A program made the position numbers and the translations under genes. This document shows, piece by piece, positions 7,710-57,169 of a stretch of DNA of 64,000 nucleotides (positions within the stretch are counted from its first letter, which is position 1; each line of letters begins with the position of its first letter). This DNA comes from Proteromonas lacertae (taxonomy: Eukaryota), in the NCBI GenBank assembly GCA_002245135.1, contig NGBS01000611.1, positions 1 through 64,000 of the forward strand, given 5' to 3'. Below the pieces are notes generated by a model. The model was given only the letters and a program-made list of their open reading frames with translations. It was not told where the DNA came from and ran no database searches.

Positions 7710-10312
7710 ATGAGTAAATTAAACATTTACTATAGTATAAATACATTATTTATATATTAGTATGCATATTTGCACTAATCTTCGTTTGCGTAAGTGGCTT
7801 TAGTGATCTAAGAAAAGATCAGAATAAAAATCCTTTAAAAGTAGTGAATCATGGACCTTCCTCAAAACTAGTTGAGTATAAACTCGAATCTCTACTTGTA
7901 CATAGTAATTCAAATGAAGGTGAAGATTTAATTGTTAAGAAACGTATTAATATTGATGAAGAAAGAGAATTGGATGTTACAGGATCAGAAGATGAACCTT
8001 CAGGAAGTACTAGTTCAACAGCTGATGTAACAACAACACCAGCTGCAACAGGATCTACAGCTCCAATAACCGAATCTACTGGAGCAACAACTGAACCAAG
8101 TGATGCTGGAAAGACAACTCCAGAAGCAACAACAACAACATCTGGTGGAGATGATGTTAATACCAATGATGGAGATGAACCACAAACAACTCATCCTTCG
8201 ACAACACCAGAAAGTACAACAACTCCAGAAGAAGAAGGCACTACTGGAACAGAAGAAGAAGGAACAACTCCACAAGCAACAATACTTGATAAATTATCTT
8301 GCCCATTTGAAAGAACACGTTATGTATATGTTAAAGGTGATAAAAAGACAATAAATTTAAGAAAACTTGAAGAAAATGATAGTAATATTACTTACACAGA
8401 TATAACTTGTAATCCTATTTACGAAGGAATTTACTATGATAATACAACTAATGTCATAGTTGATACATCAGTTGAATATTCTGGTGTTTGTACTATACGT
8501 TGTAATGCTAAGGGATTTTCTGAAGGTTCATCATCTTTTTCTATTTCTATTGTTGATTATAAAGCAATTGGAATAAATCCTATATTATCAAGAGTTCCAG
8601 CTGTAGTGAACCTATCAAAACCATTCAATGTAACATTAGTATTACAATATCCATCAATTACAGATGCACAAGATATTCCAGAAGGAAAATCAATTACATT
8701 GAATTTCGACGATGTTAGTAAATCTGATTATAATATAACGCAAGATGGTTTAGGAGATGTAGAAGAATTGGCAAATAATTCTACATTTAGATGGGATGAT
8801 TTACAGATCAATTATAATGGTGATGATACAATATATGGTTTAAATCCTGTGACTGTTAATGTCAAAGACAATAAATTAAAGAGTTATGAAAATTACACAA
8901 TAAAAGTTAACCATGATGATAATTGTACATATAGTAATGGTTATGATGAAGAAGGTTTATGTTGTAATAGAACTTATCAAGGAGAATATTGTACAAAAAT
9001 AAAAGCTACTTTCACATTCAACAACAACGATGGTGATTTTGATAGCTTTAAAACCGCATTCGTAAATGGTGTTAATACAATTACTACTGGAAGTCCATAC
9101 TTTTCTCAAAGAATAGAAAGTGAATCTAACGGTAGAGTTTTATCTGACACAAATGCTATCACATTATTAGTTACATATATTGAAGGTGGAAGTAATCCAT
9201 ATGCAAATAGATTATCAACAAGATTATTACAAGGAGGTATTGATTGGAATAGCATTTTTAGTGATGGAAAAATTGATCCAATTCAATTTGGTACAGCATT
9301 ATTATCAATTGTAGGTCCAAGTGATAAAAGTGATGGAACTATAGAAATACCTCCAGAATTAAAAGGTACACCAATTGGTAATGCATTAAAGGATGTAGTT
9401 GAAAATAAAGTTGTCACAGATGCTGTTGCAACCATTACTACAGTAGCTGATGAACAAGGTATTACAAAAGATCCAAATAATTATTTCAAATCTGAAGCAA
9501 CAGATGAAAAAGCTCCAGATGAATTAGAAGTAAAACCATTTGATAATAATTCCAAACCTTGGGCAGAAGAATATTGGTGGGTGATATTAATAATATGTAT
9601 TGGAGCTGTATTAATAATCGGAATAATCGTAGCAATATTAGTAGTATCATTATCAAGTAGTGGTGGAAGTAAAACTAACAAGAAAGATTTAGAAAAGAGT
9701 GAAAAGATAATGGAAACAGTAATTCCAATCGAAAAGATAAAACAAGAGAATGAGATAAGTGATGATGATATTTATAAACCATTTAGTTATGAAGTAATAA
9801 TGGAAGGTTATTTATTAAAGAGTGGTCGAGATCGATTAGTTGGAAAATGGCAGCGAAGATATTGTGTATTATATTTTGAACCAGCTGTATTGAGAATCTA
9901 TGATTCGATGGTTCCTAGTTATTATGGTAAAGTATATATTGATGAGAAACAAAGTATTCCATTAGATTGTTATAATGGAATTGAATATAAAGATGGAAGT
10001 AATGAATTTACATTGGTATTGAAAGTTCGAGATTCTTCAATCAAAGCATTTGAAGCAGGTGATAAAGAGAGAAAGATTGTGATGAAAGTAGAAGGTGAAA
10101 ATAGTATAGAAACAGCGAAGAGATGGGTAGAATGTTTTAGAGATTTTAAGAATCAAAAACCTAAAGCTGGAGATGCTTGGACAAGACCTTTAATAATTGA
10201 TCAAAACAATGGAAAGATTTCGACAAGTACAAACAAAGCAGCTGAAAAGAAGAATGAAGAAATAGTGTTGAAAGCTCAACAAAGAAGACAAGCAATATCT
10301 AATTCCAATTAG
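7710..10312 (+). CDS. Type I membrane surface protein: signal peptide, Thr/Glu-rich mucin-like stalk, Cys-containing variable ectodomain, TM, cytoplasmic PH domain (copy 1)
   Basis: ATG at 7710 plus a 26-nt intron (7735-7760) gives signal peptide MSKLNIYYICIFALIFVCVSG. TM is WWVILIICIGAVLIIGIIVAILVV. PH motif VIMEGYLLKSG...KWQRRYCVL...AKRWVECF. Confidence 0.85.
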
Positions 10313-10415
10313 AATAAATTACATATAATATTATACACATTATTGTATTGTTATTGTTATTATTTTTAATAAAAAATAATCAAAACAAATAATTTATTAT
10401 TAAATAATGCGTAGT

Positions 10416-12065
10416 TTATTTTCCATTTTTCACATTCTTTGCTTGTGATGGATAAAATAAAACTAAAAACAAAGCAAATGAAACAAAGCCACCAACCATT
10501 ATAAATATTCCCAATAATCCAATACTATCTAATAAGATTTGAGAAAAAACTGCTGAAAATAGATTTGAAACAACTATTCAAAATATAAAAATATCTAAAT
10601 AATCATACTTTGAGAAGTGAATATCAATCCATAAATAATACTGAAATTCTTTCTTTTAAAAGCAATAGCTGTCATTGTAGGATACATTCCAAAGAAACCA
10701 CCAAAACAGAAGAAACTCAAACATACATATATTGAATATAACACTTTGTTTCTTATATAATAAAATGAAAATTGTAATATTCCACAAACTATACCCAATA
10801 TACTACAAGTCAATCTTTGACCAATTATATCACCTAATTCACCCCACACTATTCTTCCACCTGCATTAAATATGGAACTAATTGAACCAGTCCATGTTAA
10901 AAATGTATCATCACTTGTTACTCTATCAACTCCTTGAACTTTCCAATAGGAAGACATTATACTTACAGCTACACCATTTCCCATAAACATTAACCAAATT
11001 ATCCAAAACTTATATGATTTTATTGCTTCTTTAACTGTATAAACATGATCTTTTACTTCTTCTACTTTTATCTCATCATTTGGTTTTTCTTTTATATTTA
11101 TTGTTATTTCTCTTTCATCATCAACAACAGGAGAATTTGTTGGAGATGAATTATTACTTTTGATTGTTGAAGAGTGTAATGAAAGTGGATTTGATATTGG
11201 AAGTTCATTTTCTACTGATTTTTCTTCTTCACTTTTGATTGAAAGAATATCAATTGAATTAATCTCTTTTTCTTTGTTTTCTTTATTTACATTCTCTTTT
11301 GAATTTGATTGATTCAGTGACATTTCGATTATTTCACTGGTTTCTTTATCTGGTAAACTTATCATTAACCAACCAACCAATTCTAAACAAACATATATTC
11401 CACCTGTTACTAAAAACAATTTTGGGACATTTTTCACTTGCTCTTTTGAATAGTATCCATCCTATTCACATGCTATAAAGATAAACTATACATCACTTGG
11501 TGATTCTTTATTTGGGTTTATTATTGCCAACTGAATTTGACTAAAGACAAAGGATCCTAAACCAAAACCACCTACGATTATTCCATTTATCAAACCTTTG
11601 TATTTAGGTAACCATTTCATACAAACAGACATTGGACTAGAATATGCTATTCCAGAACCAGATCCTGCTAACAAACCATATACCAATATTAAACCAACGA
11701 AATTGTGACAAACAAGAGAAGTAACAAATAAACTAGCACATAGCAAAGTACATCCTATAGCCATAGTAATTTTAGCACCAAATCTTCTCTCCATTAAACC
11801 TCCCAAAGGCATAAATGCTGACTATGTGTATAAATTATGAAATTAGAATACTTGTCCAAATAATGACATAGCGAATGGCCAAACAGATATATTTTTACCA
11901 ATCGACTATATAAATATAAAAAAGAATGAATAATACAGGAGATCCATTATTTCTGATATATGAAATAACATATAAACTGAGATTACCCCATGAATATACT
12001 GCTCCCAATGTTAAATGTATTAAAAACCCACCTAAAACAGCCAAGAATGGCCTTAAATTTGACAT
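10416..12065 (-). CDS. MFS transporter, OxlT/OFA (oxalate:formate antiporter)/monocarboxylate-like
   Basis: LGAVYSWG, GGLMERRFGAK, KWLPKYKGLINGIIVGGFGLGS and FNAGGRIVWGELGD motifs. Four short GT-AG introns. Confidence 0.85.
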
Positions 12066-12239
12066 GATAATAAACTAAAGAATTTAACAGAATTTTTTAA
12101 AACACGTGTTTTTTTAATTGGAATTAATGTATGAATGTTATTTCATACAAAAAATATACATATCATGATATACTAATAATAAACTTAATTAAACTAAATT
12201 ATTATAATCTATTCTATTCTATTAAGATTAAGAATTTGA

Positions 12240-12390
12240 TTGTTGAATGAAGTATCAGGAACTGTCTTTCTATAAATAATGATGATAATAATATTATCTT
12301 TTAATATACATTTGGCTGTACCAATTGTTCTTTTCATAGATTTACTTTCAATATCTATTTTCAGTGGAGAACTTATTGCTTTTCTCATCA
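12240..12390 (-). pseudogene. Duplicated 3' fragment of the EXO1 gene
   Basis: The reverse complement closely matches 40411-40572 (...TCTCCACTGAAAATAGATATTGA...TCTATGAAAAGAACAATTGGTACAGCCAAATG...AGAAAGACAGTTCCTGATACTTCATTC). Confidence 0.85.
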
Positions 12391-13213
12391 GTTAACTATT
12401 AAATCCTTTAAAATACATCTCTATTCAATAAATATTAACAAATAACAAAAAATACTCTCAAATAGTTTAAATTAATCTCTATTAAATCAACTACTTGTTG
12501 CAATGATGTTATATCTGTTATTTTATTAATCATTTCCTTGAATAAATTCTCATCTTTTATCTCAATATTTGCTATAATCACTGCTTTACCTATGTTTGTA
12601 CTGATTCTAATTAAATTCTGTATTTCTTCATAAGATAATGAATTTTTATAATTAATGAATAATAAATAAGCAGAATGTTGTACTTCTGGAGGTTCATTGT
12701 ATATGAGAAAATCACAACCTGTAGCTAATCCAGTTTTTGGATATCTAGTAAATATAACAATATTTCAAATATATTATTATACAATTTCATTTTCTTCAAG
12801 TGATTATAAACTGCATATCTTAAAATAAATGGGATTTGGTTATTTACATAATTAGAAGAAAATAACTTCCATAAATCAATGAATGATACAATATCATTGT
12901 TTTTATAGCAGACTTGGATTAAATTTTGAGCAAGAAGATGGATTGTTTCTTCATGTGACAGCTATTGATTAAAATAATAACCATACAATCAAATATTCAT
13001 CACTAGATGATATATATTCTGGTTTGCCTTTTGAATAACTACCTCTACCAAAACTACCTAAATTATATACCTATATACCAATATATTCGATAATATACTT
13101 TATTATATGTGTCTTTATCAAAGACATACACTACTGAATCTATTAATATTGTTGTTAGCATGATATTCTTTAATTACACATCCAATGTCATTTTGACATT
13201 GAATTACACTCAT
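12388..13213 (-). CDS. tRNA-splicing endonuclease catalytic subunit, Sen2-like (multi-exon; start uncertain)
   Basis: Manual translation across tiny introns gives VYNLGSFGRGSYSKGKPE and RYAVYNHLKKM...YPKTGLATGCDFLIYNEPPEVQHSAY...LIRISTNIGK, matching the Sen2/EndA catalytic motifs. Confidence 0.75.
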
Positions 13214-21562: not shown

Positions 21563-24160
21563 TTACTTGGAAGAAATAGCAGCTTGTCTTCTTTGTTGAG
21601 CTTTCAATACTATTTCTTCATTCTTCTTTTCAGCTGCTTTGTTTGTACTTGTCGAAATCTTTCCATTGTTTTGATCAATTATTAAAGGTCTTGTCCAAGC
21701 ATCTCCAGCTTTAGGTTTTTGATTCTTAAAATCTCTAAAACATTCTACCCATCTCTTAGCTGTTTCTATACTATTTTCACCTTCTACTTTCATCACAATC
21801 TTTCTCTCTTTATCACCTGCTTCAAATGCTTTGATTGAAGAATCTCGAACTTTCAATATCAATGTAAATTCATTACTTCCATCTTTATATTCAATTCCAT
21901 TATAACAATCTAATGGAATACTTTGTTTCTCATCAATATATACTTTTCCATAATAACTAGGAACCATTGAATCATAGATTCTCAATACAGCTGGTTCAAA
22001 ATATAATACACAATATCTTCGCTGCCATTTTCCAACTAATCGATCTCGACCACTCTTTAATAAATAACCTTCCATTATTACTTCATAACTAAATGGTTTA
22101 TAAATATCATCATCACTTATCTCATTCTCTTGTTTTATCTTTTCGATTGGAATTACTGTTTCCATTATCTTTTCACTCTTTTCTAAATCTTTCTTGTTAG
22201 TTTTACTTCCACCATTACTTGATAATGATACTACTAATATGGCTACGATTATTCCGATTATTAATACAGCTCCAATACATATTATTAATATCACCCACCA
22301 ATATTCTTCTGCCCAAGGCTTGGAATCTTCTGGAGAATGATCTACTTCATCACCAACTTGTGTTGTAGGTGTGAAATAATCCTCAGATTTTTTAACACCA
22401 TTCTCATTTGCTGAGATAGTAATTTCTTTAACAACTTTTTTAACTACATCTTCTTCAATTACTGTCTGTAATGCTGATTGTATTTCAGGTGGTAATCCTA
22501 TTGGTATTACAATTTCTTCAGGATTTCCAGTATTTTCACTTGGTGCTATTACTGATAAAAGAACATTACCAAATAAAATTGGATCAACTTGATTATTACC
22601 ATCCTTTCCATTTAAAATGTCATTCCAATTTATACCTCCTTCTAACAATCTTCCTTCAAGAGTTGGAAAATCTGGAGCTGTTCCATTTTCAATATATGTT
22701 AAAATGAATCTTATTTTATGATCATTTTCATCATTACCATTTGTTTTATCCTCATATTTATATGGACTAGTATTAAATATTACATTCATGTTTTCTGTAA
22801 AATTATTTTTAAATTCACTAAAACTACCACTACCATCAAATTCAAATGAAAATGCACCTTGAATTTTTGTACAATATTCTCCTTTATATTTTCTTTCACA
22901 ACATAACCCTTGAGGATCTACAGATTTTGGACTATTACATTCTTTATCATGACTAACAAGTATTTTAAACTTATGATTAATATGGTAAATACTATCAGAA
23001 ACACTAACAGTTACATCATCAACACCTTCTTCTTTATTAGTGTTGTAATTAAACTGTAAATCTTTCCATTCAAATGTAGTTGAATTTGAAATTGGTACAA
23101 CTTCTTTTTCATAACCATCTTGAGTAATATTATAACTTCTTGGATTAGTATCATTGAAATTTAATGTTACATCTTTCCTGTACTGCTTTAATTGATCCTC
23201 ATTTTCATAACCAGATATTGTTGGATATTTTAAAGCCAATGTTACATTGAATGGAGTAGATATATTAACAATTACTGGAACTTTTGATAAGATTGTATTT
23301 ATGCCATTTGGTTTATATTCAACAATTGATATAGAAAATGATGAACTTCCTTCTTTATATCCAGTAGCATTACATTTTATAGTACATTTCACATTATTTA
23401 ATTCTACATCTGTTTTAACAGTGACATTATTTTCTATACTATACGTAATATTTGGATTATTTTCATCACAACTAAAATCATAATAGTTAATATCTATTCC
23501 ATTTTCATTTAATTTAGTTGGATTTATTGTTTTAGTTTGACTTCCTACAATAAATTTATATGTAGGATATTGAAACGGACATTTTAATACTTCTTTTTCT
23601 GGTGTTGTTCCAGTTACAGTTTCTGTTGGTTGTGGTGTTGTCGCTGCTGGTTCATCTGTCTCACCACTACCACCTTCATCTTCTGGAGTTGTTGTTACAT
23701 CAGGTTTAGTTGTTCCTTCTGCTGTTGTAGCTTCGTATTTTGTTGTACCTGTGAATTCTTCACCATCATCACCATCTCCTTTTGGTGTTGTTGGACCTGT
23801 TGATCCTTCTTCTGACTTTTGAGTTGTTGTTACTTCAGGTGTTGTTTTTACTGAACCTTCTCCACCATCTTCACCAGTTGGTGTACCTTCTTCCATTTCT
23901 CTTTCTTCATCTAAGTTCATTCGCTTCTTTATTATCAAATCTTCTCCATCATTGTTGGAATTACTATTATTATTATAAAGATTCAAACTTATACTCATTC
24001 ATCTTTCCAGATAAACCATCTCTAAATCCACTTACTAACTTAGACTTCTTTTCTTTACTTAAATCACTTAAACCACTCACACTCACTAAAATCAATGCAA
24101 ACATGCATACTATTAAATTAAACAAACTAATATACCATAGTAAATGTTTAATTTACTCAT
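21563..24160 (-). CDS. Type I surface protein with cytoplasmic PH domain (copy 2; +1 frameshift near 23978)
   Basis: ATG at 24160 and a 26-nt intron at 24110-24135. One extra A relative to copy 3 (ttataaagattc vs ttataagattc) disconnects the signal peptide. TM+PH region is nearly identical to copies 1 and 3. Confidence 0.8.
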
Positions 24161-34606: not shown

Positions 34607-37600
34607 CTATAAAGATACACCAGTATCAGTTCTAGGAATTTGAAATTCAACATTGTTATTTCTGAAAACTTTACATGAGTATTTACCACTCAATGTATTA
34701 ATAATTATTTCCATCAAATCTTTCACATTTGTCTTATCATCAACAATTAAATCAGCATCTTTGTTCTTTCCATCAACATCAACTCTAATAACAGGTACAA
34801 ATGGATGTCCTGGTGCAGCAGGTAAATCACTATAAGCAACAATAACATTAACACCACCACTTGCAATACCAACTAAATTCTCAATCCAACTCTCAGTTAA
34901 ACTCTGCATGATATGGTATTTATTATTTCTATCGCTTAAAGGTACAGTTTCACCAAATAAACAGGTATTTTGTGGTTTAACTTCATGGAATATTTTCTCA
35001 TTATATTCTTTTGATTGAATATGACTGCTTTTCTCTGTTGTTACAATATACATTCCATTACCACCAGCAATTGTTGTTAACTCAATTAATAACTTAATAA
35101 TTGGTTCAGGAAGTGATTTGCTGTGCGTAAATATACCAATACCATAGTTACAAATATCAGTGGTTATTCTTTCAGGTTGTTTTAATTCAGATACTTTAGT
35201 TTTGAGATAATTCTCTACTTTTTCATAACATTTATCAATACCATGATCATTTTGAATTGAAGCTTGTCCATAATCATTAATATTCATATTTAAACCTTTC
35301 ATCTATTCAATAATAATAATAATTAATAATAAATATACGATTTTATCAAAATAAGCAATCAATGTCTTTTCACATCCATGTTCCAATAACAATGTATTTC
35401 TGACATTATTATGAGTTAAATGACCAATCATTACTCTGTCATATAACTTTAATCCATCAAATGGATGATCACCATAACCTTCACCACATCCTTCAGTATG
35501 AGGTAATGCAACAATTCGACTATAAATATCACTAATACGGTTATTAGTTGAAGATGATGAATTGGTCTTTTGTTTCTTTGGTGATTTTCTTTTCTTTTCT
35601 TCATTCTCTAACATAGTTTGGAGGTAAAAAAATAATAAATTAAAGAAAATAATAATAATATATATAAAAAAAATGATATCTTATTGGCATATTTCATAGA
35701 AACTTGTCCTGAACATAAACTAGTAGGTAATACTAAGAATATATTATCACCACCAACTATTTCTCTTTCAGGTAATTTAACACCATCAAATTTCAATGTT
35801 GTTGTATTCACTGATTCAGATATAGGATATGGTGAATGACTTGGTGGTTTTCTTTCCATTGTAACTTTATAATCATCTTTAGAGATATTATACCAATTCC
35901 TCCATATTTGAACCTATATTTATTAATAAATATTTATACTTGTGAATGACCTGCTATTTCTCCTTGTGTTTTTTCACCACTACATACTCTAATCAATCTC
36001 TCAAATGTTTCTTCAGTCAAAGTCTCCATACTCTTACCATCTAAATATTCACCAGCATTCACATCAATATCACCACTTAATAATTCATATCTACCTGTTG
36101 TAGTCATTAACTTAATAATCGGTACAAATGGATGATTAGTTACTGATCCATTTCCTGTACTGAATAAGATAATATTACATCCACTAGCTACTTGTCCAGC
36201 AACTGATTCAATATCATTACCAGGACTATCCATGAAATAATAACCTCTTTCTTTATTCTGACTTCCTTCACTATAATTCAAACAGTAATCTAATCGACAG
36301 CATTCTGGTTTCTTCATTGCTGCACCTAATGATTTGATTGTAATGTTATATAAACCTCTATAGAAGTTTCCACCACTTGGATTACTTTGTGCACTCATTC
36401 CATGATTACCTGCCCATTCATCATAATGGGATTGTAACTGTAAAAAACTCTTTGCAGTTTCTAAATCTTTGACTTTATCTAATATATAACTACCTGCTCC
36501 TATTAATTCATCTGTTTCTGCTAAGATTCCTTTTCCACCTTGTTTGATTATCTTTGCTGCAATATTACCTTGTAATGGATTGGCACTTATTCCACTAAAT
36601 GCATCACTTCCTCCACATTGTAATGCGACGGTTAAATCAGAGAGTGGACATGGTTCTCTTTTGGAACGAGTAAATTGCTTTTTGAATTTATTTACCAGTT
36701 TTCTTCCTTCTTCGATTGTATCATCGAAATTTGGTTTTACTTCGATATATTCTGCTATTACTTTACTAATATCAATTCCTCTACCTGATATCTCTTTATC
36801 GATCATTTCTTTTGTTATGTGACATCTATACATACATAATTAAGAGAATTATATACGATGGTGAAGTTACAACTATAGCAGCACATGTATTTGGATGACA
36901 TATAAATCCAGCTATAGTTCTCAATAAGTAATCAATATTATGAGGAGTTGTATCACAATCATCTTCAGTATGTCTTATACAAGCCAAGCCGTCAAGATTC
37001 TTTGATTTGGCAAATGTATTACCAAATGAATTCACAATTGCTTGAGCATAGGGACCACAAACTGCATTCAAACCAATAACTACTATGAAACTCCTTGTTC
37101 CTACTCCTCTATTTCCTTCACGTTTATAACCGTCAAAGTAACGTAATTCTTTATCCAACGGTAATTGTTCTGCTGGTTTGAAATTCTTTTCATCTAACAC
37201 AAATTCGTCTATTCTATCATCAAAGTTGCATTCTGTTGGTAATTCAAGTGATGGATCAATTACTTCTATTGACATATAAATAATTATAACCACTATAAAT
37301 AGTAAATACTTAAAGCTTCTAATCCTCTTCGATTAATTAGATAATCACCTGGATGTAAATCAGTCAACGTTGTTCCAAATTCCAACCCCCATGAATATAC
37401 GTGTTTACCTTTTGGTATTTCTTCAATAGCAAATCTATGACCTAAACAACAAGTCTAAATTATCATTAAATAAACTAATTTGGTATAATTATTCAATAAA
37501 AAGATATATGTGAAATAGAAACAGTCTTCCCTTCTGGTAGTTCAATCTGTGTTCCTTTTTCTAAACGAACACATGCCACAGCACAATTGTCACCAGCCTT

Positions 37601-37642
37601 AGGAATTCGAGCAATATCATGAAACTTGAGAATCTTGGCCAT
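34607..37642 (-). CDS. UxaA/GarD-family altronate/galactarate dehydratase, extended form (SAF domain + GD_AH core + second degenerate GD_AH-like region)
   Basis: SAF GDNCAVA...HTCCLGHRFA; GVGTR; LQCGGSDAFSGISANP; NPSGGNFYRGLYNITIKSLGA; MDSPGNDIESVAGQVASGCNIILFSTGNG. A second ALPHTEGCG...EHGCEK repeat follows. Six introns. Confidence 0.85.
35624..35679 (-). other. U12-like AT-AC intron (56 nt)
   Basis: AAG|ATATCATTT...TTTTCTTTAAT...TTTTTAC|CTC. Removal joins YANK to LQTMLENEE in frame; no GT-AG alternative was seen. Confidence 0.75.
37455..37507 (-). other. U12-like AT-AG intron (53 nt)
   Basis: CAT|ATATCTTTT...TTTATTTAAT...TTTAG|ACT. Removal restores the SAF motif SH-TCCLGHRFA. Confidence 0.75.
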
Positions 37643-37710
37643 ATTCAATAAAATCTTTGATTTTATATTCTTCAGATTAGCTTGGCTTGATAATTATGAA
37701 AATTTAAAAA

Positions 37711-38665
37711 ATGGACAGTTTCACTACTTGGATGGAAGATAATAAAGATAATTTATCAGATAAAACAATATTTGATATTTTACTACCAGGAACACACGAT
37801 TCTGGTATTTTTCTCATATTTTATTAATTTTACACTAGGAGCATATGCTTTGGGTAAAAGTGTTGGACCAAATGGAGCTGGTTGTGGTATAGCAGGTAAA
37901 TGCAAAAAGTATCACATTTCAATTAGTGGAACTATGAGGAAATGGTCTCAAGCCCAACCAAATTGTATATATGAGCAACTAGATGCTGGTATTAGACAAT
38001 TAGATATTCGAGCATTATGGGATTCACAAGATTGGGTTTTACACCATTGTTTATTAGGTGATAAAATATTAAGAGTTCTTGTTGAAGTAAAGAGTTTTAT
38101 AGAGAAGCATGAATATGAAGTATTACGAATAGATTTTAGTCATACATTTTATTCTGCAGAAGGTTATAAAAATGAAGAATTATTTGATTTAATAATGAGT
38201 TATATTGGTGATTATTGTATTGATAGAGATACAGATCTACATACACTCACATTTGATGATATGTGGAAGACTAATAAGAGGATTTTAGTCACTTTTGATA
38301 GTGACAAAGGAATTGATAATTATAACTGTATTTTTAATTTGTCAACTATCGCTGAAGGGTATTTTTCTAATAAAGTGAAAGTAGCTGAGATGATTGAACA
38401 TAATAATATGTTGTTATCTAAGCATAATCCTAAGTTAATGTTGGATTTATCTTGGACATTGACTCCAAGAGCTGGGAATATTGTGAAAGGTATGTTCCAT
38501 TGTGGCAAAACGAATTTACTTCAATTAGCATCCAGTGCTGATGAGTATCTTACTGATTGGTTGAATACTCATAAAAATGAGATGAAAGGAGTTGTTTTGA
38601 TGGTTGATAACTATGAAAAATGTCCTGATTTAATAACTATGGCTATTCTAATTGCTCAAAGTTAA
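37711..38665 (+). CDS. PI-PLC X-domain (PLCXD/bacterial PI-PLC-like) protein without signal peptide
   Basis: WMEDN...LLPGTHDS|GAY...WSQAQ...EQLDAGIRQLDIR...LHH. One intron near 37805-37838. Confidence 0.85.
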
Positions 38666-38840: not shown

Positions 38841-40595
38841 ATGGGTGTATGATTGATATGAATATTATTTTTATAGATCAAAGGGCTGCTTAAATTTTTA
38901 GAACCATTTGCTAACAGTTGTCACATTCAAAACTATCGTGGCAAACGATTAGCAATAGATGGCAATATATGGCTTCATAGAGGGTATATTAACACTGAAT
39001 ATTGTATTATTTTACATAGTGCTTATTCTTGTGCACTTGAATTGGGATCTGGAGCAAAAACTACAAAATACACAAATTATGTTATGAAAAAGATAGAAAT
39101 GTTACAATATTATGGAATAACTCCTGTAATGGTATTCGATGGTAGAACACCAAAGGTCAAAGATGATGAAGTGCAAAGAAGAGTAGATAAAATGACAGAA
39201 GACAAGACACAAGGTCTATTATTATTAGACAAAATTAACCACACTCCTAGTGGTAAAGATACATCAAAACTCAAATCAGAAGCTGTTTCTCATTTTCAAA
39301 GATGTATTAGAGTAACACCTGAAATGAAGCAAGAGTTAATATTAGTATTAAAAAAGATGAAGATACAATATATCGTCTCACCTTATGAATCAGATGCCCA
39401 AATGACTTATCTCTGCAAAATTAACTATACTCAAGGTATAATCACTGAGGATAGTGATTTAATCGTATATTCAGCAGTAATCAATAAGAGTTATCCAATC
39501 ATAACTAAACTAGCAGATAATGGTGAAGTTGTAGAATATACATTACAATCTATTTTGAATGGAAGTAAAACGGATAAATTTTGGAAACAAATGAAAGTGA
39601 TGAACAATGTAATGTTCATTCAAGGATGTATCATGTCAGGTTGTGATTATTTAAAATCAATAGAAGGAATAGGAACTAATAAATCATTCAAATTATTACA
39701 GAAATATCACATGTATAGTGATGATGAAAGAATTAAACATATTATAATGGAATTACAAAGACAAAGAAAGAAGAATATTCCAGAAAATTATGTGAATGAT
39801 TTTGAGAAATCGTATAATGCATTTTTTACACATAAAGTGATTGATCCTTTTAAGAATAAAATAGTATCTTTGGTATATGATAGTAAAAAAGAAGAAGATA
39901 ATAATAATAAAACTGTTGAAATAACATCAGATATTGAAGATGATGATGATAATAGTGATATTAAAATAGATACAAATATAGTAAATAATATATCATCAGA
40001 AACAACTGATAATAATGATAATCAACATCATACCATGTTTAATCCATTTAGTAGTAATAAATCAATAAAACCATCATTTACACTAAGGAAATCTCCTATT
40101 ACCATTCCATCCAATTATAATCAACCATCTCCTATATCATCTACAACTTCATCAACTGATGGTAATATAAAGATAGTTACACCAAAGATGAGTGTATTTG
40201 ATAAATTCAACTCAATTAAGTCGAAATATCAGTGTTTAGCTAATAAAGATAAAGAAACAGTAAATAATTCTTATACTGCCAATACTTCTACTACTCCTAG
40301 TAAGAAAACTGATATAATTTCACCAATTGATATTAAATCTTTGAGTTATTTCAGTCAAAAGAAGAAATTATATTCTACTAATAGCAATAACAGTTTATTT
40401 AATAATTATTTGATGAGGAAAGCAATGAGTTCTCCACTGAAAATAGATATTGATAGTAAATCTATGAAAAGAACAATTGGTACAGCCAAATGTATATTAA
40501 AAAGAGCGTATTATAATATTTTTATTATCATTATTTATAGAAAGACAGTTCCTGATACTTCATTCACCAATCAACCACCAAATTCATTATTTTGA
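38841..40595 (+). CDS. EXO1: Exonuclease 1 (XPG/RAD2 family)
   Basis: MG|IKGLLKFL...AIDGNIWLHRG|AYSCA; VFDG; VSPYESDAQ; ITEDSDL; SGCDYL.SI.GIG. Confidence 0.9.
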
Positions 40596-40644
40596 TGGGG
40601 TGAATTAATAAATTTGTTAAAATATGTTTATTATCAGTATTTTA

Positions 40645-40882
40645 TGTTGGGAGCAGTATATTCTGGAGTAATCTCAGTTTATATGTAATTTCGTATATAA
40701 ATAATGTATGTTGAATTTAATATATGTATGTTGGTGTTTCTATTTTAAAATGGCAGCTATTGCTTTTAAAAAAAAGAATTTCAGTATTATTTATGAATTG
40801 ATATTCACTTCTCAAAGTATGAATATTAGATATTAATATTCTAAATAGTTGCTTCAAATTTTATTAGATAGTATTGGATTAT
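40645..40882 (+). pseudogene. Heavily deleted remnant of the MFS transporter gene
   Basis: Colinear patches match the reverse complement of 11955-12010 (TTGGGAGCAGTATATTC...AATCTCAGTTTATATG), 10590-10677 (CAGCTATTGCTTTTAAAA...TTCACTTCTCAAAGTATG) and 10518-10580 (TTATTAGATAGTATTGGATT). Confidence 0.85.
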
Positions 40883-40944
40883 TTGATTATTCTTTATAAA
40901 AAATACATTTCAGATATGTAAACTATATTATTATCAAATGTAAT

Positions 40945-43532
40945 TTACTTGGAATTAGATATTGCTTGTCTTCTTTGTTGAGCTTTCAACACTATTTCTT
41001 CATTCTTCTTTTCAGCTGCTTTGTTTGTACTTGTCGAAATCTTTCCATTGTTTTGATCAATTATTAAAGGTCTTGTCCAAGCATCTCCAGCTTTTGGTTT
41101 TTGATTCTTAAAATCTCTAAAACATTCTACCCATCTCTTCGCTGTTTCTATACTATTTTCACCTTCTACTTTCATCACAATCTTTCTCTCTTTATCACCT
41201 GCTTCAAATGCTTTGATTGAAGAATCTCGAACTTTCAATACCAATGTAAATTCATTACTTCCATCTTTATATTCAATTCCATTATAACATTCTAATGGAA
41301 TACTTTGTTTCTCATCAATATATACTTTGCCATAATAACTAGGAACCATCGAATCATAGATTCTCAATACAGCTGGCTCAAAATATAATACACAATATCT
41401 TCGCTGCCATTTTCCAACTAATCGATCTCGACCACTCTTTAATAAATAACCTTCCATTATTACTTCATAACTAAATGGTTTATAAATATCATCATCACTT
41501 ATCTCATTTTCTTGTTTTATCTTTTCAATTGGAATTACTGTTTCCATTATCTTTTCACTCTTTTCTAAATCTTTCTTGTTTGTTTTACTTCCACCACTAC
41601 TTGATAATGATACTACTAATATTGCTACGATTATTCCGATTATTAATACAGCTCCAATACATATTATTAATATCACCCACCAATATTCTTCTGCCCAAGG
41701 TTTGGAATTATCTTCTACAGAAAGTGGTTCATCAGTTGGTTTAGAAGTGAAATAATTATCAGGATCTTTCTTAATACCTTTATCATTTGCTGATTGAGTT
41801 ATTGTTGCAACAGCATCTGTGACAACTTTATTTTCAACTACATCCTTTAATGCATTACCAATTGGTGTACCTTCTAATTCTGGAGGTATTTCTATAGTTC
41901 CATCACTTTTATCACTTGGTCCAATTACTGATAATAAAGCATTACCGAATTGAATTGGATCAACAGATCCATCTCCTGAAAAAAGTGATGTCCAATTGAA
42001 TGGTGCAGGTGTAGCTTCTTCTAACATTCTATTTCTTAGACTATTTCTACCTTCAACGTATGTCATTAATACAACAACTTCATTATTTCCTAAATTATTT
42101 TCACTTGTCTTATCATCCATGATATATGGACTGTTATTCAAAATTAATTTCAAATTTCTAACAAAATCATTCTTAAAAAGTCCAAAATCTTCTTTCTTTA
42201 TTGTTTCACCTTCTGTTGGCTTAAAAGAAAAAGTTCCTTCTATTTTTGTACAATATTCTCCTTCATATGTTAACTCACAACATAATCCTTGAGGATCTTC
42301 CCTATTTGGTGGTTTACATTCTAAATCATGATTTACTTTAATTGTGTAATTAACATCAATTCCGTATTGATTACTATCAACATTAACTTTTACAGGATAT
42401 AAACCATCTAATTTTTCTTCACCCTTATAATTAATTTGTATGTCATCCCAGTTAAATGTATCACTTTTGGTTATTGGTTGTATATCAGTAACATTATCAT
42501 CTTTTGTAATGTTGTAATTATCAGTAACAACTTTGTTAAAATTCAAAGTAACTGGCGTATTTTTATTATCATCTAATTCCTGTTTTGTATAACCAGTAAT
42601 TGTTGGATATTGTAATTCTAATGTTACATTAAATGGAGTTGATAATTTTACCATAACAGGAACTGTTGATAAGTATGGATTAATACCAGTAGGCTTATAT
42701 TCAACAAAATTAATGGTAAAATTTGTTTCTTTACTCTGTCCATCAGCTGAACATTGGATTGTACATGTAACTGAATCACCATTTGGAGAAATTGTTTTAG
42801 GTGTTAAAGTGATATTACCATCCTCACTAAATGTTGGAGTAGTAGTAATACCTTCACAATGAAGGTTTGAATATTTTATTTCCTTACTATGGAAATTGTA
42901 ACTTAATGGTAATAATGTCTTTTCTGTTTCAGAACCATTAATAAATCTGTATGTAGAGTATTGATATTGACATTCAAGAGGTTCTGGTGTTGTTCCAGTT
43001 ACAGTTTCTGTTCCTTGCGGTGTAGTTGCTGCTGGTTCATCTGTCTCACCACTACCACCTTCTTCTTCTGGAGTTGTTGTTACATCAGGTTTAGTTGTTC
43101 CTTCTGCTGTTGTTGCTTCATATTTTGTTGTACCTGTGAATTCTTCATCATCACCATTTGGTGTTGTTGGACCTGTTGATCCTTCTTCTGATTTTTGAGT
43201 TGTTGTTACTTCAGGTGTTGTTTTTACTGAACCTTCACCACTATCATCATCTGATCCAGTACCTTCCAATTCTCTTTCTTCATCTAAGTTCATTCGCTTC
43301 TTTACTATCAAATCTTCTCCATCATTGTTGGAATTACTATTATTATTATAAGATTCAAACTTATACTCATTCATCTTTCCAGATAAACCATCTCTCAATC
43401 CGCTTACTAACTTGGTCTTCTTTTCTTTACTTAAATCACTTAAACCACTCACACTCACTAAGATCAATGCAAATATGCATACTATTAAATTAAACAAACT
43501 AATATACCATAGTAAATGTTTAATTTACTCAT
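40945..43532 (-). CDS. Type I surface protein with cytoplasmic PH domain (copy 3)
   Basis: ATG at 43532 and a 26-nt intron at 43482-43507. Intact ORF with the same architecture as copies 1 and 2. Confidence 0.88.
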
Positions 43533-44035
43533 TATTCAATGAAATAGAGAATGAAATTTAAAATCACTCAACTGCTGTGTAATGATTGGTTTAAATCTTA
43601 TGAAACGGCTCTTTTCATGTTTCATTCGTTTTACATTATTTCTGTGTAATTTGTATTAATTGACTAAATGAATTTAAAAGTCTGAAATATAATAGAAATG
43701 ACTATTCCAAGTATTAAATACTCTTTATCTTCACTAAATCTCTGATTTTTTCTTGTTTATTGTTTAAGTATGTTTTCTAAATCTTCATTACCACAGTGAA
43801 TATGAAAAATATTCCATTTCATTATATCTTCTTCTAATTCACTATTTTAATCATTTTCAGTTGTTTTATCATTCCAATCATATCTTCACTAAGAGTTACC
43901 TTCATTTAAACTTTCAATCATACTAAATTGAATGGATATATACACTTTTCAATAGAATAATATCATCATAAATGGTTTATTTTTGAAATGAAAATACAAG
44001 AATGTTTGATAGTAATCAAGCCTAGATTATTAAAA

Positions 44036-45081
44036 ATGAAAATTCTCACTATTGTGATATTATTTTTACTAATTAATATTGTAAAATGTGAATTAAAGTA
44101 TGAAAGATGGATGGAAGAGAATAAAGAATATTTGTTAAACAAAACTCTGTTAGATGTGATAATTCCAGGAACTCACGATAGTGGAACATACTATTTATCT
44201 GACATAATGGCACCTGGTGGATCTGGAAGTGAATTTGATGTATTTTTAGAATTAGCTGAAATTCTTCATGCTCCAATTGCTGAAATAATGAGACCATGGA
44301 GTGTAACTCAAACAGATAATTTGATAGAACAATTTAAAGCAGGATTTCGACATATTGATTTAAGAGTTTTATGGGATAGAGGTGAATGGCGAACTCATCA
44401 TGCTTTAGAAGGTGATAGAATCTATGATATGATAATTGATATAAAGAAATTTATTGAAAGTCATCCATATGAAGTAATAATTGTTGAATTAGGTCATACT
44501 GATTATTCTGAAATTGGTTGGAATAACACAGAATTAATGTATTTAATAAGTGATATCTTAGGAGATTATATGTTAGAAAATGATTTCAAAGATATATATG
44601 ATTTAACATTCAAAGAAATGTGGGAAAATAATAAACGATTGATATTTATGTTTGATATATTTGATGACACTTTGAATAATAACAAATTCTTTTATTTGAG
44701 TAAAATAAGTGAAGGATATTATGCAAATAGTGCCAATGTTAATGATATGATAAATCATAATGATTATTTAATATCTGATCGAGTAAATTCATTTTTATTA
44801 GAAATATCTTTTACTTTAACAGCTGATGTATATTTATTTATTTATTTATTTATATAATATATTATTAGGGTAATACAATATTTGGTTCAATATTACCCAA
44901 ACATCCAAAATCATTATTGGAATTATCAAAATATGCGAATAAAGAATTGAAGAAGTGGTTATCAAGTCATAAATATGATATATTGGGAAGTATAATAGTA
45001 ATAGATGATTATGCAAGTTGTGAAGCGTTGGTAGAATATGCAGTAGAAATGTGTAAATTACCATTAAATAAAGATAATTAG
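44036..45081 (+). CDS. Secreted PI-PLC X-domain protein
   Basis: Signal peptide MKILTIVILFLLINIVKC; IPGTHDSG; GFRHIDLR; THH. Intron near 44828-44868. Confidence 0.85.
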
Positions 45082-45253
45082 AGTTTTTTATATATAATTA
45101 GTTTATAATCTAAAATTTTTATATTAAAATAATTTTATTATGTTTATAGGTTTGAGGATAAATATTAAATATCAATAATATAATTCAATACAATTAAAAA
45201 AAGAATTAAATGTATTTAGGTTTGATTCCTATCAAGCAATCTCATTCTTCAAA

Positions 45254-46317
45254 ATGAAATATGTCGCTTTGTTGTTGTTAATATTATTAGTTAGCAGTGT
45301 AAAAAGTGATATAAATTATGAAAGATGGATGGAAGATAATAAGGATTTTATTGCTAATAAAACACTCTATAATATTGTTTTACCAGGAACTCATGATACA
45401 GGTATTATCAAAAAATATATATTTGTATAGGATCATATAGATTTTCTGATAATATTGCTCCGGGAGGTTCAGGTGCTGAATTTGACGCTTTTATAAAGTT
45501 AGCTGAAATATTACACATTCCTATAGCTGATGTAATAAGACCATGGAGTTTAACACAAACAGGAAATATAACTCAACAATTATTATCTGGTTTTAGACAT
45601 TTTGACTTGAGAGCAATATTGGATCATAATAATTGGTATACCTATCATGCATTAGAAGGAAATTTAATCCATGATATAATAATAGAATTAAAGAACTTCA
45701 TTACTTCTCATCCTTTTGAAATTGTGTTTGTAGAAGTAGGACATACATATCCATCAGTAAAAGGATATAATAATACTGAATTATTATATCTAATATCTGA
45801 TTTAGTAGGTGACTATATGATTAAGAAGGATATGGATAATAATAAGGAGTTATATGATATTACACTGAAAGAGATGTGGGAAATGAATAGAAGGTTAATA
45901 TTTTCATTTGATGAATTTAGTGATACACTTTATAACGATTATTTCTATTATCATACTTCAATATGTGAAGGTGTTTATGCTAATACTCCCAAAGTTGATG
46001 AAATGATTAAACATAATGATGATATGATTAAAGGAAGAGTGGAAGGGTTTATTATGCAAGTGTCATATACTTTAACTGCTACTGTATTGTTCATTTATGA
46101 TATATTGTAGACTGATACGATTTTAAGTTCAATATTACCAAATCATCCAAAGTCAGTGATTGATTTAGCGAAAAAAGCTCAGAAAGAGTTGAATAATTGG
46201 TTAGCAAAACATAAGACTGATTTATTTGGTAGTATTATAGATGTTGATGATTTTGTGAATTGTAAAGCTGTAGTTGATTTTGCGATTGAAATGGCTAAAA
46301 TACCTTTAAAAGTGTAA
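45254..46317 (+). CDS. Secreted PI-PLC X-domain protein
   Basis: Signal peptide MKYVALLLLILLVSSVKS; LPGTHDT|G; GFRHFDLR. Two introns. Confidence 0.85.
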
Positions 46318-46426
46318 TAATATGATAGTGTGTGATAAAAATATTGATTGGGCAAAAAATAAAAAATAAAAAGGACATGATCTGTCCAAATCCCAATTTT
46401 TCTAATTCAATTTCTGTGTGTTCTAT

Positions 46427-47481
46427 ATGAAATTTCGTCAATATTTAATCTGTTTTGTAATATATATGATAAATTATTCACTTGAATACAAATATGATAG
46501 ATGGATAGAAGAATCTAGATCTATTCTCTCAGAAAAGACACTTTTTGATGTAATGCTGCCTGGTACCCATGATTCAGGAACATATAGTCTTGGTGAAAAT
46601 ATATGTCCAGGTGGTGGTGGAGGTAAAACCAATGAAATCCTCAAAGTCACCAACGCATTGTTATTACCAGTCCAAAAGATAATGAAGAGATGGTCAATTA
46701 CACAGAATGGAAATATAACAACTCAACTAAATGCAGGAATGAGATATTTTGATATAAGAGCATTATGGGATAAGGATCAATGGTATATACATCATGCTCT
46801 GGAAGGTGAATATATTCATTCTGTATTTCACCAAATCAAGAACTTTCTAGATATTCATGTATGAAATTAAGGAAATATATATATAATTGATTAGAAATAT
46901 GAAGTTATTTGGATTGATGTAAGTCATACGGATTTTTCAGCTGATGGATATAATAATACAGAATAATTATACCTAATAACTGATATAATTGGATATTATG
47001 CAATACCAACAGAATTGGAGATAAGAGAATTGAAATTCAAAAGAATGTGGAAGAATGATATAAGGTTAGTGCTAACATTTGATTTATTTGAAGAAACACT
47101 AGAAAATAACAAGTATTTATATAATTATATTATATTAATAATAGATTTTTCTTTGTAAATGATCTCGTTGAAGGTGCTTTTGCAAATACGCCATATAAAG
47201 AAGAAATGATTATTCATAATACCAATCTATTAGATGAAAGAAGTGAAGGATTAATTTTGCAGATTAGTTGGACAATTACTCCAGGAATAGAAACAGTGTT
47301 GTGTTCAGCATTACCTGGAAGACCTCAGAGTTTGCTTGCACTTGCTGTTGATGCTAATAGTGAGTTTTTAAAGTGGTTTAATGCAAAAAGGAAGTTATTG
47401 AAAGGTACTATTGTTATGGTTGATAATTTTGAACAAGCTGAAAGTTTGGTAAAATCAGCTATTTTGATTAGTAGAAGTTAA
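46427..47481 (+). CDS. Secreted PI-PLC X-domain protein
   Basis: Hydrophobic N-terminus; MLPGTHDSG; QLNAGMRYFDIR; IHH. Two introns. Confidence 0.85.
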
Positions 47482-49649: not shown

Positions 49650-50822
49650 TTATACATACTCATAAATATTATTTGACATATAGTACAATCCACCAGGTGA
49701 TAAACCATGAATCCATAAATAATTCTTCTTTATTTCATCAAAATTTATGAATTTTGTTTGTATAAAATCAGATACTCTGTGATTGAATATATTATACTGA
49801 CTAATATTACAATATTGCAGTAACATTCCTAAATAAACATCATCCATAAATATTATCTTCTTCATATAATAAGAAGCATTTAATACTTTCTTAATTGTGT
49901 TTTCTGATAGGAATATACATGGACCTTGTGGATAATCTGGCCAATATTCACCAGAATAAGCAGAATAAGTGACATACCATTTTTTCCATCCATTCATTTT
50001 CGAAGAAATGTGATGAATTACTCTCTGATGTTTGTACACAGCTGAAATCACTGGATATACAGTAGAAATACTATGAAAATGTTCTAAATAATAAGGAATA
50101 TTAAGAAATATATCAATTTGATGCATTACAACATATTTGTAGTTTTTACAATGATTATTTATCCATCTTAAACTGCCAATCATATTATATGGTAGTTTAT
50201 AATACTCTCCAATAAAATCAAACTGAATTATATCTCCATAGTATTGATTTTCTTCACTTATCAATCTATTTATATTGTCTATTTCACTTGTTGTAGTGAA
50301 AAAGAATGTTTGAATAAATGAATAATTATAATACATTTTTCTATAAGTATATCTCTCTAGGAATGATTCTACTGGACTTGTTATTACCAATATTAATTCT
50401 ACACCATTTTTACATGGATTTATTGGGTGGATATTAATATTAATATTAATTGGATGTTTTAATATAAATTTTGGTGAGTATATATTCTTTGCTCTATTTT
50501 TAATACCTTCATATAATAATCCGCACTTCAAGAAATAACGGAATTTGCAATTCATATAAGCATTATATCTCGTAGACAGTCGTTTATTCATATACTTCAC
50601 ATATACTGTATATTTCCTTTTATATACACTTAGATTACCTTCAACCATGGTAAACAAAGGAGGATATTGAGAAGCTTTCTTCAAATCATAACCATTTTGT
50701 AAACAAATCCATAAATCATAAAAATAATCCAATTTCTCAGTATATAAAAAAAGATACATAGTTAAATTAATTGAAATATCTACAATTATAATCAATAGGA
50801 AGAATAAAAAGAGTTTACTCAT
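49650..50822 (-). CDS. GT31 beta-1,3-galactosyltransferase-like, type II membrane
   Basis: N-terminal TM; FLERYTYR; ENQYYGDIIQFDF; WPDYPQGP; MDDVYLG; WIHG. Confidence 0.8.
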   Translation of the reverse strand: MSKLFLFFLLIIIVDISINLTMYLFLYTEKLDYFYDLWICLQNGYDLKKASQYPPLFTMVEGNLSVYKRKYTVYVKYMNKRLSTRYNAYMNCKFRYFLKCGLLYEGIKNRAKNIYSPKFILKHPINININIHPINPCKNGVELILVITSPVESFLERYTYRKMYYNYSFIQTFFFTTTSEIDNINRLISEENQYYGDIIQFDFIGEYYKLPYNMIGSLRWINNHCKNYKYVVMHQIDIFLNIPYYLEHFHSISTVYPVISAVYKHQRVIHHISSKMNGWKKWYVTYSAYSGEYWPDYPQGPCIFLSENTIKKVLNASYYMKKIIFMDDVYLGMLLQYCNISQYNIFNHRVSDFIQTKFINFDEIKKNYLWIHGLSPGGLYYMSNNIYEYV

Positions 50823-54234: not shown

Positions 54235-57169
54235 ATGAAAGATCAATTTTATTTGTCATGTATTTTATTTTATTATATATATAGTAATCTTAATCTTAAC
54301 ATGTGTTTTTGTTAGATGTGATAAGGTAGAAAAAGATCCCTTCACAGTTTCTATTTGTAGTTTTGTACCAGAAACTCCAGAACCTACTAGAACACCAATT
54401 CCACCCGTTCCTACAACTCCTAAACCAAAACCAACCACAGATTCAGATACAGGAACTTTTGATGATGATGCTACTGAGTCTGAAAAGCCATCAACTGATA
54501 GTACAACTACAGCTGTTTCTGATACTTCTGCTGCAACATCAGCAACAACTCAAGAAGCAACAACAGCTGACACTACTACACCTGCAGGTACAACAACTAA
54601 GACAGAAGTAGCAACTACTACACCTTTAGATGATAGTACAACTGATGAAGAAAACGAAGGAGGTAATCAAGAGAATCAAGGTAATAATAAAGGTATAAAA
54701 GAAGATGGAGAATTATTAGTTTATAATAAGAACAGATTTTTATTAGAATATGGTGAATTCCCACCACAACAAAATGATGAATTAATCAAATCATTTGCTC
54801 TATCTGCATTTAACACTACCTGTAAAGATAAAGGTCTTGAATTTAATATTGAAGGTATTGAAATTAGTGTTGAATATAAATATACAAAAGGTGAAGATAG
54901 AGTTACATATGAAATTACATTCAGTGAAATATTCATCAATAATACAGTTGAAAATAACAAAACATGGGAAGGAATAATAAATGAATTAGAAGGAAATAAT
55001 GGTACATTTTACTCCATAATGAATAATTTAACTAATGATAATTATACTACCTGTGAAATGCCAAATAGATTGAAAGAACCAACTCCATGTAGTTATGATA
55101 AAACATATTATGAATATTTAGCTATTAATGAGGCTAATGATAAAATTGTAAGTCCTAATGCTACAAATGTGAATGTAAGTTATGCAATATCTTGTACAAA
55201 GGATTATGTTACTCCAGATAACACAAATGGTCAATTAAAAGTAGATATTAAAACAAAACAAAGTTTTGCTTATTGTAATATTCAATGTAGTGCTGAAGGT
55301 TATAGAAATAATTATAATCAATTAACATTCGTCGTTAAAGATAATTTACCTTCTTTTACTAAAGTAGGCAGTGTTGTTCCATTCTATCAGAACTCAGAAG
55401 AAGTATTTAGTATTACAATGAAAGTAGTATATGCAGAAGGAGTAGATGCAACGAGTAAGAAAATGACAATATCTAATTCAGGTTCATGTACATTAGAAGG
55501 AAAAAATGAAGTAGAAGGAAGTACAAAATTTGTATTTAATGATTTGAAGTACAAATGTCCATATACTAATACATTTAGTGAAAGAATAACCTTTACAATC
55601 GAAAGTGTAACAAAACAATATGCAGTTCAAGTAGTTGAAAGGCCAAAGTTTGTACCCAATGAAAATCCATCTACAAATGCAGATGGATCAACTCAAGCAC
55701 CAGTAGAACCTGAATATACATGTAAAGAAGAATTATCATTGGATCCAACAACTAACTTATGTTGTAAAAGAGATGAAGTTTTAGGTGAATCTTGTAATTC
55801 AGTTATTATTTCATTCCCATTTGCAAAGACAGGTTCTGAATCTATTACAAAATTAGATGAAGGTTTTGTTGAAGATTATATAAAGATGCTTAGACAATAT
55901 GCATTTGATGAAAGTAATTTCAATTTTACGATTATAAATGATGGGAGTGATATGAAAATTGAAATTAATGTAAAGTTTTACAGTCAAAAGACATTCATAT
56001 ATAGTGGTGGTGAATTAATAAGAAGAAGATCATTGCAACAAGGAATGAATTGGAATGCATTACCATCACCATTTTTATATATTCAAACAGTTGTTTCATA
56101 TATTGAGCCAACTGCTGTAACAGATACTAGCGGAGAAGGAAATGTTGCAAATGAAATACCACCAATATTACTAGAAGCATTTCCTGAAGCTACAAAAGAC
56201 ACAATTATCAGTAAAATAGAAACTGTAAAAAAAGAAGCATCAGTAGCAGCTACACAGATATCAGCTGAATATAATGTTGTATTAGATACAGAACAAGGAA
56301 TATCATTAATGCCATCAGTTGATAATACTGCTGTAGCACCAGAAGTAACAAATGGAAGATTAGAAACAGTGAGTAAACCTGATGATAAATCATGGGCTGA
56401 AAAGAACTGGTGGGTTATATTAATAATCTGTTTAGTTGTGGTTATTCTAATAGCTGTGATTGGCGTTGTTTTATATATTAAATTATCCAATAAATCAGGT
56501 GGTGGTTCATCTTTATCTCCAAGATCTGTTTCAACATCAAAGAAAGATTTAGAAAAGAGTGAAAAGATAATGGATACTGTTATTCCATTAGAAAAGTTCA
56601 AAGAGGATAATGGAGTAGAAGATGAAGATATTTATAAACCATTTACATATGATGTAATAATGGAAGGATATTTATTGAAAGAAGGACATGATAGAGTAGT
56701 TGGTAAATGGCAGAAAAGGTATTGTGTATTATATTATGATCCTGCAATCTTGAGAATCTATGATTCAATGGTTCCTAGTTATTATGGCAAAGTATATTTA
56801 GAAGAGAAGCAAAGTATTCCGTTAGATTGTTATAATGGAATTGAATATAAAGATGGAAGTAGCGAATTTACATTGGTATTGAAAGTACGTGAATCTAACT
56901 TAAAGACTTATGAACCAGGTGATAAAGAAAAGAAGGTGATAATGAAAGTAGAAGGTGAAAATGCTAAAGAAACAGCTAAGAAGTGGGTAGAATGTTTTAG
57001 AGATTTTAAGAATCAAAAACCAAAACCAGCTGAAGCATGGACAAGACCATTAGTAGTGGATGAAAGTAGTGGGAAAATTACAACTACAACAGAAAGAGGT
57101 GCTGAAAAGAAGAATGAAGAGATCATTAATATGGTTAATCAAAGAAGAAAACAAACAAGAGAGAATTAA
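54235..57169 (+). CDS. Type I surface protein with cytoplasmic PH domain (copy 4, most divergent, longer ectodomain)
   Basis: ATG at 54235 and a 25-nt intron (54260-54284) at the same codon-9 phase-1 position as copies 1-3. The frame is open from 54285 to 57169. TM WWVILIICLVVVILI; PH VIMEGYLLKEG...WQKRYCVL. Confidence 0.85.

Follow-up and report, generated by a model that had tools for sequence, protein, structure and literature searches.

The window, the whole 64-kb stretch of DNA analysed here, has a GC content of 28%, uses the standard code and has predicted introns of 25-36 nt; for comparison, GC contents of 21-23% and 39-55% and introns of 30 nt are given for Blastocystis in the available text of PMC12129017. 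A search with the Ca-ATPase encoded in the window yielded hits at only 49-52%, for the most part from animals. Four paralogs of a predicted surface-protein gene were found within the window:

7710..10312, plus strand: copy 1, 848 aa predicted, including an internal block (9317-9432) and a tail (9546-10308)
21563..24160, minus strand: copy 2, 846 aa predicted
40945..43532, minus strand: copy 3, a predicted type I membrane protein of 843 aa with two predicted introns
54235..57169, plus strand: copy 4, a distant paralog outside the recent exchange

Copies 1-3 are dispersed, 17-33 kb apart, with copies 2 and 3 in direct orientation and copy 1 inverted relative to both. The gene models depend on two short predicted introns, which in copy 3 are:

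43482..43507, minus strand: predicted intron 1, 26 nt, after base 25, at a position common to 4/4 copies
43337..43366, minus strand: predicted intron 2, 30 nt

The second of these is also 30 nt long in copy 1 (7876-7905) and 31 nt in copy 2 (23994-23964). In copies 1 and 3 it is in-frame and without stops, and it is the apparent frameshift created by 31 nt instead of 30 nt in copy 2 that gives the predicted intron away. With both introns removed, the frames of copies 1, 2 and 3 are open (848, 846 and 843 aa, respectively), and once intron 2 is recognised there are no coding frameshifts in the four copies or in a 2.6-kb ATPase gene. The idea that copy 2 is a frameshifted pseudogene or silent donor was rejected, as its extra T (23977-23979) sits inside predicted intron 2, and the gene is probably intact. 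Comparable stop-free introns of 3n length may inflate ORFs elsewhere, for example at 40508-40540 in the EXO1-like gene.

The predicted protein of copy 3 has, in order, a signal peptide, a Thr/Glu-rich stalk, an Ig-like sandwich, a low-confidence beta region, a Cys hairpin, a ferredoxin-like alpha/beta domain, a transmembrane segment (TM) and a PH domain. A structure was modelled from 14 aligned sequences (mean pLDDT 66.5), and two ectodomain domains were compared with known folds:

42984-42697, minus strand: Ig-like beta-sandwich, from the predicted structure
42258-41734, minus strand: predicted membrane-proximal alpha/beta domain, folded alone (pLDDT 81.6)

The first resembles S-layer, SraP, VCAM, PKD and cadherin domains alike (Z 7.6-9.4, rmsd ~3 A, ~90 residues) and, as modelled, is a generic sandwich with no one family favoured. 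The membrane-proximal domain has its best Z of 6.0 (rmsd 2.8, 86 aligned) to ferredoxin-like domains, and PCDH15 MAD12 appears at rank 49 (Z 4.8, rmsd 4.3, 96 aligned). Because the ferredoxin-like fold is widespread, a SEA-like role for this domain is only a lead; a Foldseek search with it gave 0 matches at E up to 0.001, and no SEA-family chain stood out, though the domain may still belong to that family. An R-x-L-Q/E-like loop motif recurs, a putative sign of proteolytic processing within the domain. The PH-domain assignment (PF00169) is marginal, with scores of 25.3 bits for copy 3, 25.4 for copy 1 and 25.9 for copy 4 against a cut-off of 25.1, and of 25.0 bits for copy 2, under the 25.1 gathering cut-off. 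Cadherin families were absent from the Pfam hits shown for the family proteins, and a PDB sequence search gave 0 matches at E up to 1.

Relatives of the family are few: 2 of 1586 candidates, and 15 hits among 1.84 billion representatives. The full-length relatives are unnamed assembly proteins, with 0 names in the 7 clusters looked up. In the ESM Atlas the ectodomain query gave no usable match and the tail query one weak match at 0.77, to an unnamed eukaryote cluster. In metagenome contigs, 28 pattern matches yielded 0 confirmed as a related locus, and an exact match to a tail pattern was not found; short forms of the protein were 0 of 65 candidates. No description of the receptor architecture was found in the literature searched, which comprised main texts only, with thin coverage of subscription papers. 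At the protein level, tail conservation extends to distant relatives (45-71% aa). One of these, the P0127 cluster, has six near-identical variants (98-99%) with no divergent patches. Another protein, P0133, carries the same PH subtype (E 1e-4) in a very different composition and without a TM, and the PH module may thus predate the receptor fusion.

Copy 4 is related to copies 1-3 by 70-71% aa and 83% nt in the tail and by ~20% aa in the ectodomain. It has an extra N-terminal folded-looking region, and its first intron is positioned as in copies 1-3. Its tail codons are ~80% alike to theirs, against 63-68% for ectodomain codons, an excess that perhaps reflects an older conversion.

Along copy 3, likeness to the other two close copies changes, and the gene can be divided as follows:

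42986..43650, minus strand: 5' tract common to copies 3 and 2, with upstream DNA, signal peptide, both introns and stalk
43475..43617, minus strand: perfect 143-bp match to copy 2 (24245-24103)
41920..42985, minus strand: middle ectodomain, ~1.07 kb, 59-62% nt and 43-46% aa identity among copies 1-3
41804..41919, minus strand: internal block, matching copy 1 9317-9432 at 115/116 positions
41712..41803, minus strand: juxtamembrane spacer, diverged, matching copy 1 at 66/93 positions with a further 21-nt indel
40964..41711, minus strand: homogenised tail, with the TM at ~41682-41613 and the PH domain at 41463-41113

Identities (for pairs 1-3, 2-3 and 1-2) and private sites (for copies 1, 2 and 3) by segment are:

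5' tract: identity 67, 94 and 65%; private sites 141, 16 and 7
Middle: identity 59, 62 and 62% (593/999, 636/1023 and 618/1002); private sites 157, 125 and 150
Block: identity 98, 63 and 62%; private sites 1, 37 and 0
Juxtamembrane spacer: identity 71, 62 and 59%; private sites 11, 18 and 8
Tail: identity 99, 98 and 99% (740/747, 731/747 and 737/747); private sites 0, 9 and 6

Recomputing these segments without intron 2 left the result unchanged. The original prediction had placed the 5' part of copy 3 near copy 2 and far from copy 1, and in coding sequence the two identities are indeed 463/492 and 305/456. The tract aligns copy 3 43650-42986 to copy 2 24297-about 23600 over ~660 bp, with 29 substitutions plus in-frame indels. 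Its perfect 143-bp match spans 85 bp of upstream DNA, exon 1 and intron 1, the last being identical to copy 2 at 26/26 positions and to copy 1 at 15/26. The three other segment claims also held: the internal block is near copy 1 and unlike copy 2 (115/116 vs 64/102), the middle of the ectodomain is unique to each copy (59-62% nt in every pair), and the cytoplasmic part is homogenised, with tails 98-99% identical among copies 1-3. The block, which encodes a loop and two helices in the predicted alpha/beta domain, has a binomial p of 3e-25 at the 59% background. The two large tracts end at predicted domain borders, at the stalk/Ig-like junction (~42985) and just before the TM (41711).

Private-site counts vary by segment (chi-square 237, 8 df, p 1e-46). 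The segment borders were set after the alignment was viewed, and the permutation and simulation tests are independent of them. Runs of a single site type reach 37 in the ectodomain; simulations on a star tree with clumped rate variation attained this in 0 of 20,000 cases (maximum 16), and a 3SEQ-like maximum descent of 67 was equalled in 0 of 100,000 permutations (maximum 33). Silent divergence (dS) reaches 0.72-0.83 in the middle, against 0.13 in the 5' tract, 0.04 in the block and 0.04-0.09 in the tail. In the PH part, codons for the same amino acid are identical at 192-198 of 201-203 positions among copies 1-3 (96-98%), against 118-120 of 148-149 (~80%) in comparison with copy 4, where 70% of residues are kept; protein constraint alone is therefore insufficient for the likeness among copies 1-3.

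Whether segment trees agree, a point raised in the original prediction, received a divided answer from trees that included copy 4. The 5' tract resolves 2+3 (99/99; alternatives p-AU 0.014), and the block, a short segment, groups 1+3 (72/94) without rejecting 2+3 (p-AU 0.27); with block and spacer pooled the grouping was 2+3 (71/75), without significance in either direction. A weaker signal joins copies 1 and 2 at 42915-42660 (p 0.002-0.009 before correction for the three pairings; tree 85/81), which may be an older tract or quicker change in copy 3. Additional 2/3 tracts in the middle were not significant (p 0.08-0.10).

Two further signatures were considered and set aside. GC-biased conversion would be indicated by raised GC3, a frequent but not required sign of converted tracts; tail GC3 is 0.143-0.148 vs 0.163 in copy 4, with directional changes of 8 vs 11. 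Positive selection in the middle is unsupported, with dN/dS at ~0.6-0.7 but silent sites saturated; codon identity for the same amino acid is 64-74% there, the level seen against copy 4.

It is proposed that the patchwork among copies 1-3 arose by repeated ectopic gene conversion between dispersed paralogs, a reading of the sequence patterns to which a probability of about 0.8 is given. Homology-directed repair would mend a broken copy with another as template, starting in stretches that are still alike and halting where likeness ends. At least three separate exchanges would be involved: the 5' tract between copies 2 and 3, the 116-bp block between copies 1 and 3, and the tail among all three in short alternating pieces, with the inverted duplication flanking loci 1 and 3 as an extra, larger rearrangement. 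The conserved ends would go on recombining and so stay alike, the middle having diverged past easy pairing. The TM/PH tail and the promoter/export module would thus evolve in concert, and the folded ectodomain (~40% DNA divergence) would largely escape, gaining only occasional patches.

The original prediction went further and described copy 3 as a mosaic of copies 1 and 2. It does share tracts with both, but its role as recipient does not follow: three sequences give no direction of transfer, and copy 1 has a patchwork tail too, alternating between the states of copies 2 and 3. That tail resembles copy 3, then copy 2 (9676-9880) and then mostly copy 3. Tail sites polarised with copy 4 conflict, supporting 1+2 at 9674 and 10160 and 1+3 at 9905 and 10115, and with copy 4 so distant the polarising states may be homoplasies. 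Copy 1 has private states at 0 of 13 two-state tail sites (p 0.005 under an equal star), which would suit a mosaic, a donor to both others or a polished consensus alike. It had also been suggested that patchwise recombination shuffles ectodomain segments. Patchwise non-allelic exchange is borne out; shuffling is not, since the 116-bp block is the sole strong tract in the folded ectodomain, and the exchange would therefore mostly homogenise.

The 3' flanks of loci 1 and 3 share an inverted duplication, consisting of an MFS gene and an EXO1-like 3' end:

10400..12070, minus strand: MFS transporter gene lying 3' of copy 1, with approximate ends
12164..12404, minus strand: orphan EXO1-like 3' end, adjoining a tRNA-splicing-endonuclease-like gene
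40397..40646, plus strand: 3' end of an XPG/EXO1-like gene (ORF 39042-40595), duplicated beside copy 1
40639..40906, plus strand: deletion-riddled ~270-bp remnant of the MFS gene, the intact form of which lies beside copy 1

The gene adjoining the orphan end lies with a Myb and U-box protein in 12440-14314, and we take it to be tRNA-splicing-endonuclease-like from a motif. The two flank copies (10300-12404 and 40397-40906) sit at the two ends of a 30-kb segment, and their decay is reciprocal, with the MFS gene intact at locus 1 and the EXO1-like end intact at locus 3. In aligned flank blocks 37/445 sites differ, far below the middle ectodomains, so the copy 1 and copy 3 ectodomains did not part at the flank duplication. 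Silent differences between the tails of copies 1 and 3 are 6/148, not significantly fewer than in the flank (p 0.10), and one large copying event could therefore span both; some of the likeness between copies 1 and 3 may stem from such a larger rearrangement. Past ~50 bp, the 3' flank of copy 2 is unrelated to those of loci 1 and 3.

The most serious alternative is that a few one-off rearrangements, by ectopic crossover, break-induced copying or staggered-break inversion, made chimeric genes and no conversion is ongoing. An inverted duplication of the receptor 3' end, MFS gene and EXO1 3' end bounding a 30-kb segment, together with the indistinguishable ages of tail and flank (p 0.10), speaks for it, and the flanks of copies 1 and 3 resemble the staggered-break inversions for which the accessible text of PMC1885836 describes inverted duplication of non-repetitive sequence at segment ends. 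Here an inversion is one candidate origin, and duplicative transposition fits equally, the two origins implying opposite directions. A single event cannot yield a 99% block, a 71% spacer and a 99% tail in succession, and rearrangement leaves unexplained both the tail of copy 2, whose flank is unrelated beyond ~50 bp, and the alternating tail sites. As a full account it is improbable; it probably accounts for the flank and perhaps some of the 1/3 likeness only.

Less probable still is an assembly or polishing artefact in which reads of one copy overwrote shared blocks in another. A majority consensus would give what is seen in copy 1, with no private site at any of the 13 tail positions. Nevertheless, the tail tracts are not identical, with 7 substitutions in 763 bp for the pair 1-3 and 14 in 745 bp for the pair 2-3, mostly at silent third positions; tail mismatches include no indels and fall at codon position 3 in 12 of 14 cases. 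Likewise, 29 substitutions plus in-frame indels persist in the 5' tract, each copy has its own middle, and coding frameshifts are absent from all four copies and the ATPase gene. The 116-bp block lies within flanks of 60-77% identity, and polishing would presumably not lift 60% to 99%. Polishing could have removed the last 1% of differences, which would alter ages only; the shared tracts are probably not artefacts.

Programmed antigenic variation, in which silent donors would feed an expressed copy 3 as with the trypanosome VSG, is very unlikely. A surface-protein design that varies on the outside and keeps its anchor constant would suit it, as would the segmental mosaicism, but all copies look intact with their own upstream regions, the variable part is the least exchanged, and tracts differing by 1-6% indicate an evolutionary rather than a switching time scale. 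Moreover, the 64-kb window holds no pseudogene archive, 4/4 copies being open once the predicted introns are removed. Purifying selection with rate variation alone can practically be dismissed: the tail protein is conserved in distant relatives (45-71% aa), but homogenisation extends to silent sites, an intron and upstream DNA, likeness is pair-specific with the partner switching along the gene, and none of the 20,000 rate-variation simulations matches the observed run.

Several other features of the window were recorded. Two tandem coiled-coil genes (5213-5681 and 6886-7354) have 3' parts that are 83% identical and 5' parts at ~55-65%, which may be a further case of regional homogenisation. 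At 49650-53229, three galactosyltransferase (PF01762) genes in tandem are evenly ~60-65% identical, with no patches, and PI-PLC X-like secreted-looking genes, dispersed and tandem (37772-38665 and 43988-47112), are ~67% identical. A D-galactarate/altronate dehydratase gene (PF20629) at 35300-37700, with predicted short introns, belongs to a mainly bacterial family and is therefore a candidate for lateral transfer. Additionally, a membrane protein with an RGS domain (17719-19347) has a tail of 75-bp tandem repeats, and a LIM-domain protein (27118-28305) has a long Pro/Ala/Glu repeat tail and is the GC-richest part of the window.

Judged by its architecture, the family would be one of adhesion or recognition receptors with differing outer specificities and one common intracellular PH module. 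A bolder and rather doubtful extension is that it forms a so far undescribed protist recognition-receptor system in which variable Ig-like plus ferredoxin-like ectodomains are joined directly to a cytoplasmic PH domain, conversion holding the promoter/export and signalling modules interchangeable and now and then patching the ectodomain, as a protocadherin- or TLR-like code evolved independently in a unicellular eukaryote. The process, gene conversion, is known and the protein family is unannotated. Conversion itself is textbook and would not surprise a specialist in gene-family evolution; the value lies in a clean, divergence-dated example from a sparsely sampled eukaryote, with tracts ending at domain borders, and in a single-pass receptor family with a cytoplasmic PH domain and unnamed full-length relatives. 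Trees or annotation resting on the tail would misdate the duplications of copies 1-3.

Among known systems, mammalian TLR1 and TLR6 are likewise single-pass receptor paralogs in which the TM and intracellular TIR domain are homogenised by conversion as the N-terminal ectodomain diverges (PMC2077338, in the part available). Those genes lie in tandem and have LRR and TIR domains, whereas here three dispersed copies in both orientations have a PH tail, and the second converted module, at the 5' end, involves a different partner. In the clustered protocadherins of fugu, zebrafish and human, as the accessible sections of PMC1852091 describe them, 3' regions are >99% identical among paralogs, silent sites included, and 5' ectodomains, of beta-sandwich folds as predicted here, have diverged. 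They differ in having tandem variable exons and raised GC3, in contrast to whole dispersed genes with no GC3 rise, and the present family, with no cadherin Pfam match, is not cadherin by sequence. Conversion also carries ectodomain pieces between receptor paralogs in the N-domain of primate CEACAMs (PMC8860441, available portion), but there the ligand-binding domain is the converted unit and selection is demonstrated, and here the folded ectodomain is the least converted. Trypanosome VSG and Paramecium surface antigens are protist surface families in which segmental conversion gives chimeric genes (PMC4235209, from the text at hand); the VSG differ in that the variable domain is the unit moved, with no sign here of an archive, expression site or exclusive expression, and unlike both of those families the present proteins carry a TM and a PH domain. 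Should the proteins truly serve in adhesion or self-recognition, the family would parallel, by convergence, the evolution of TLR1/6 and the protocadherins.
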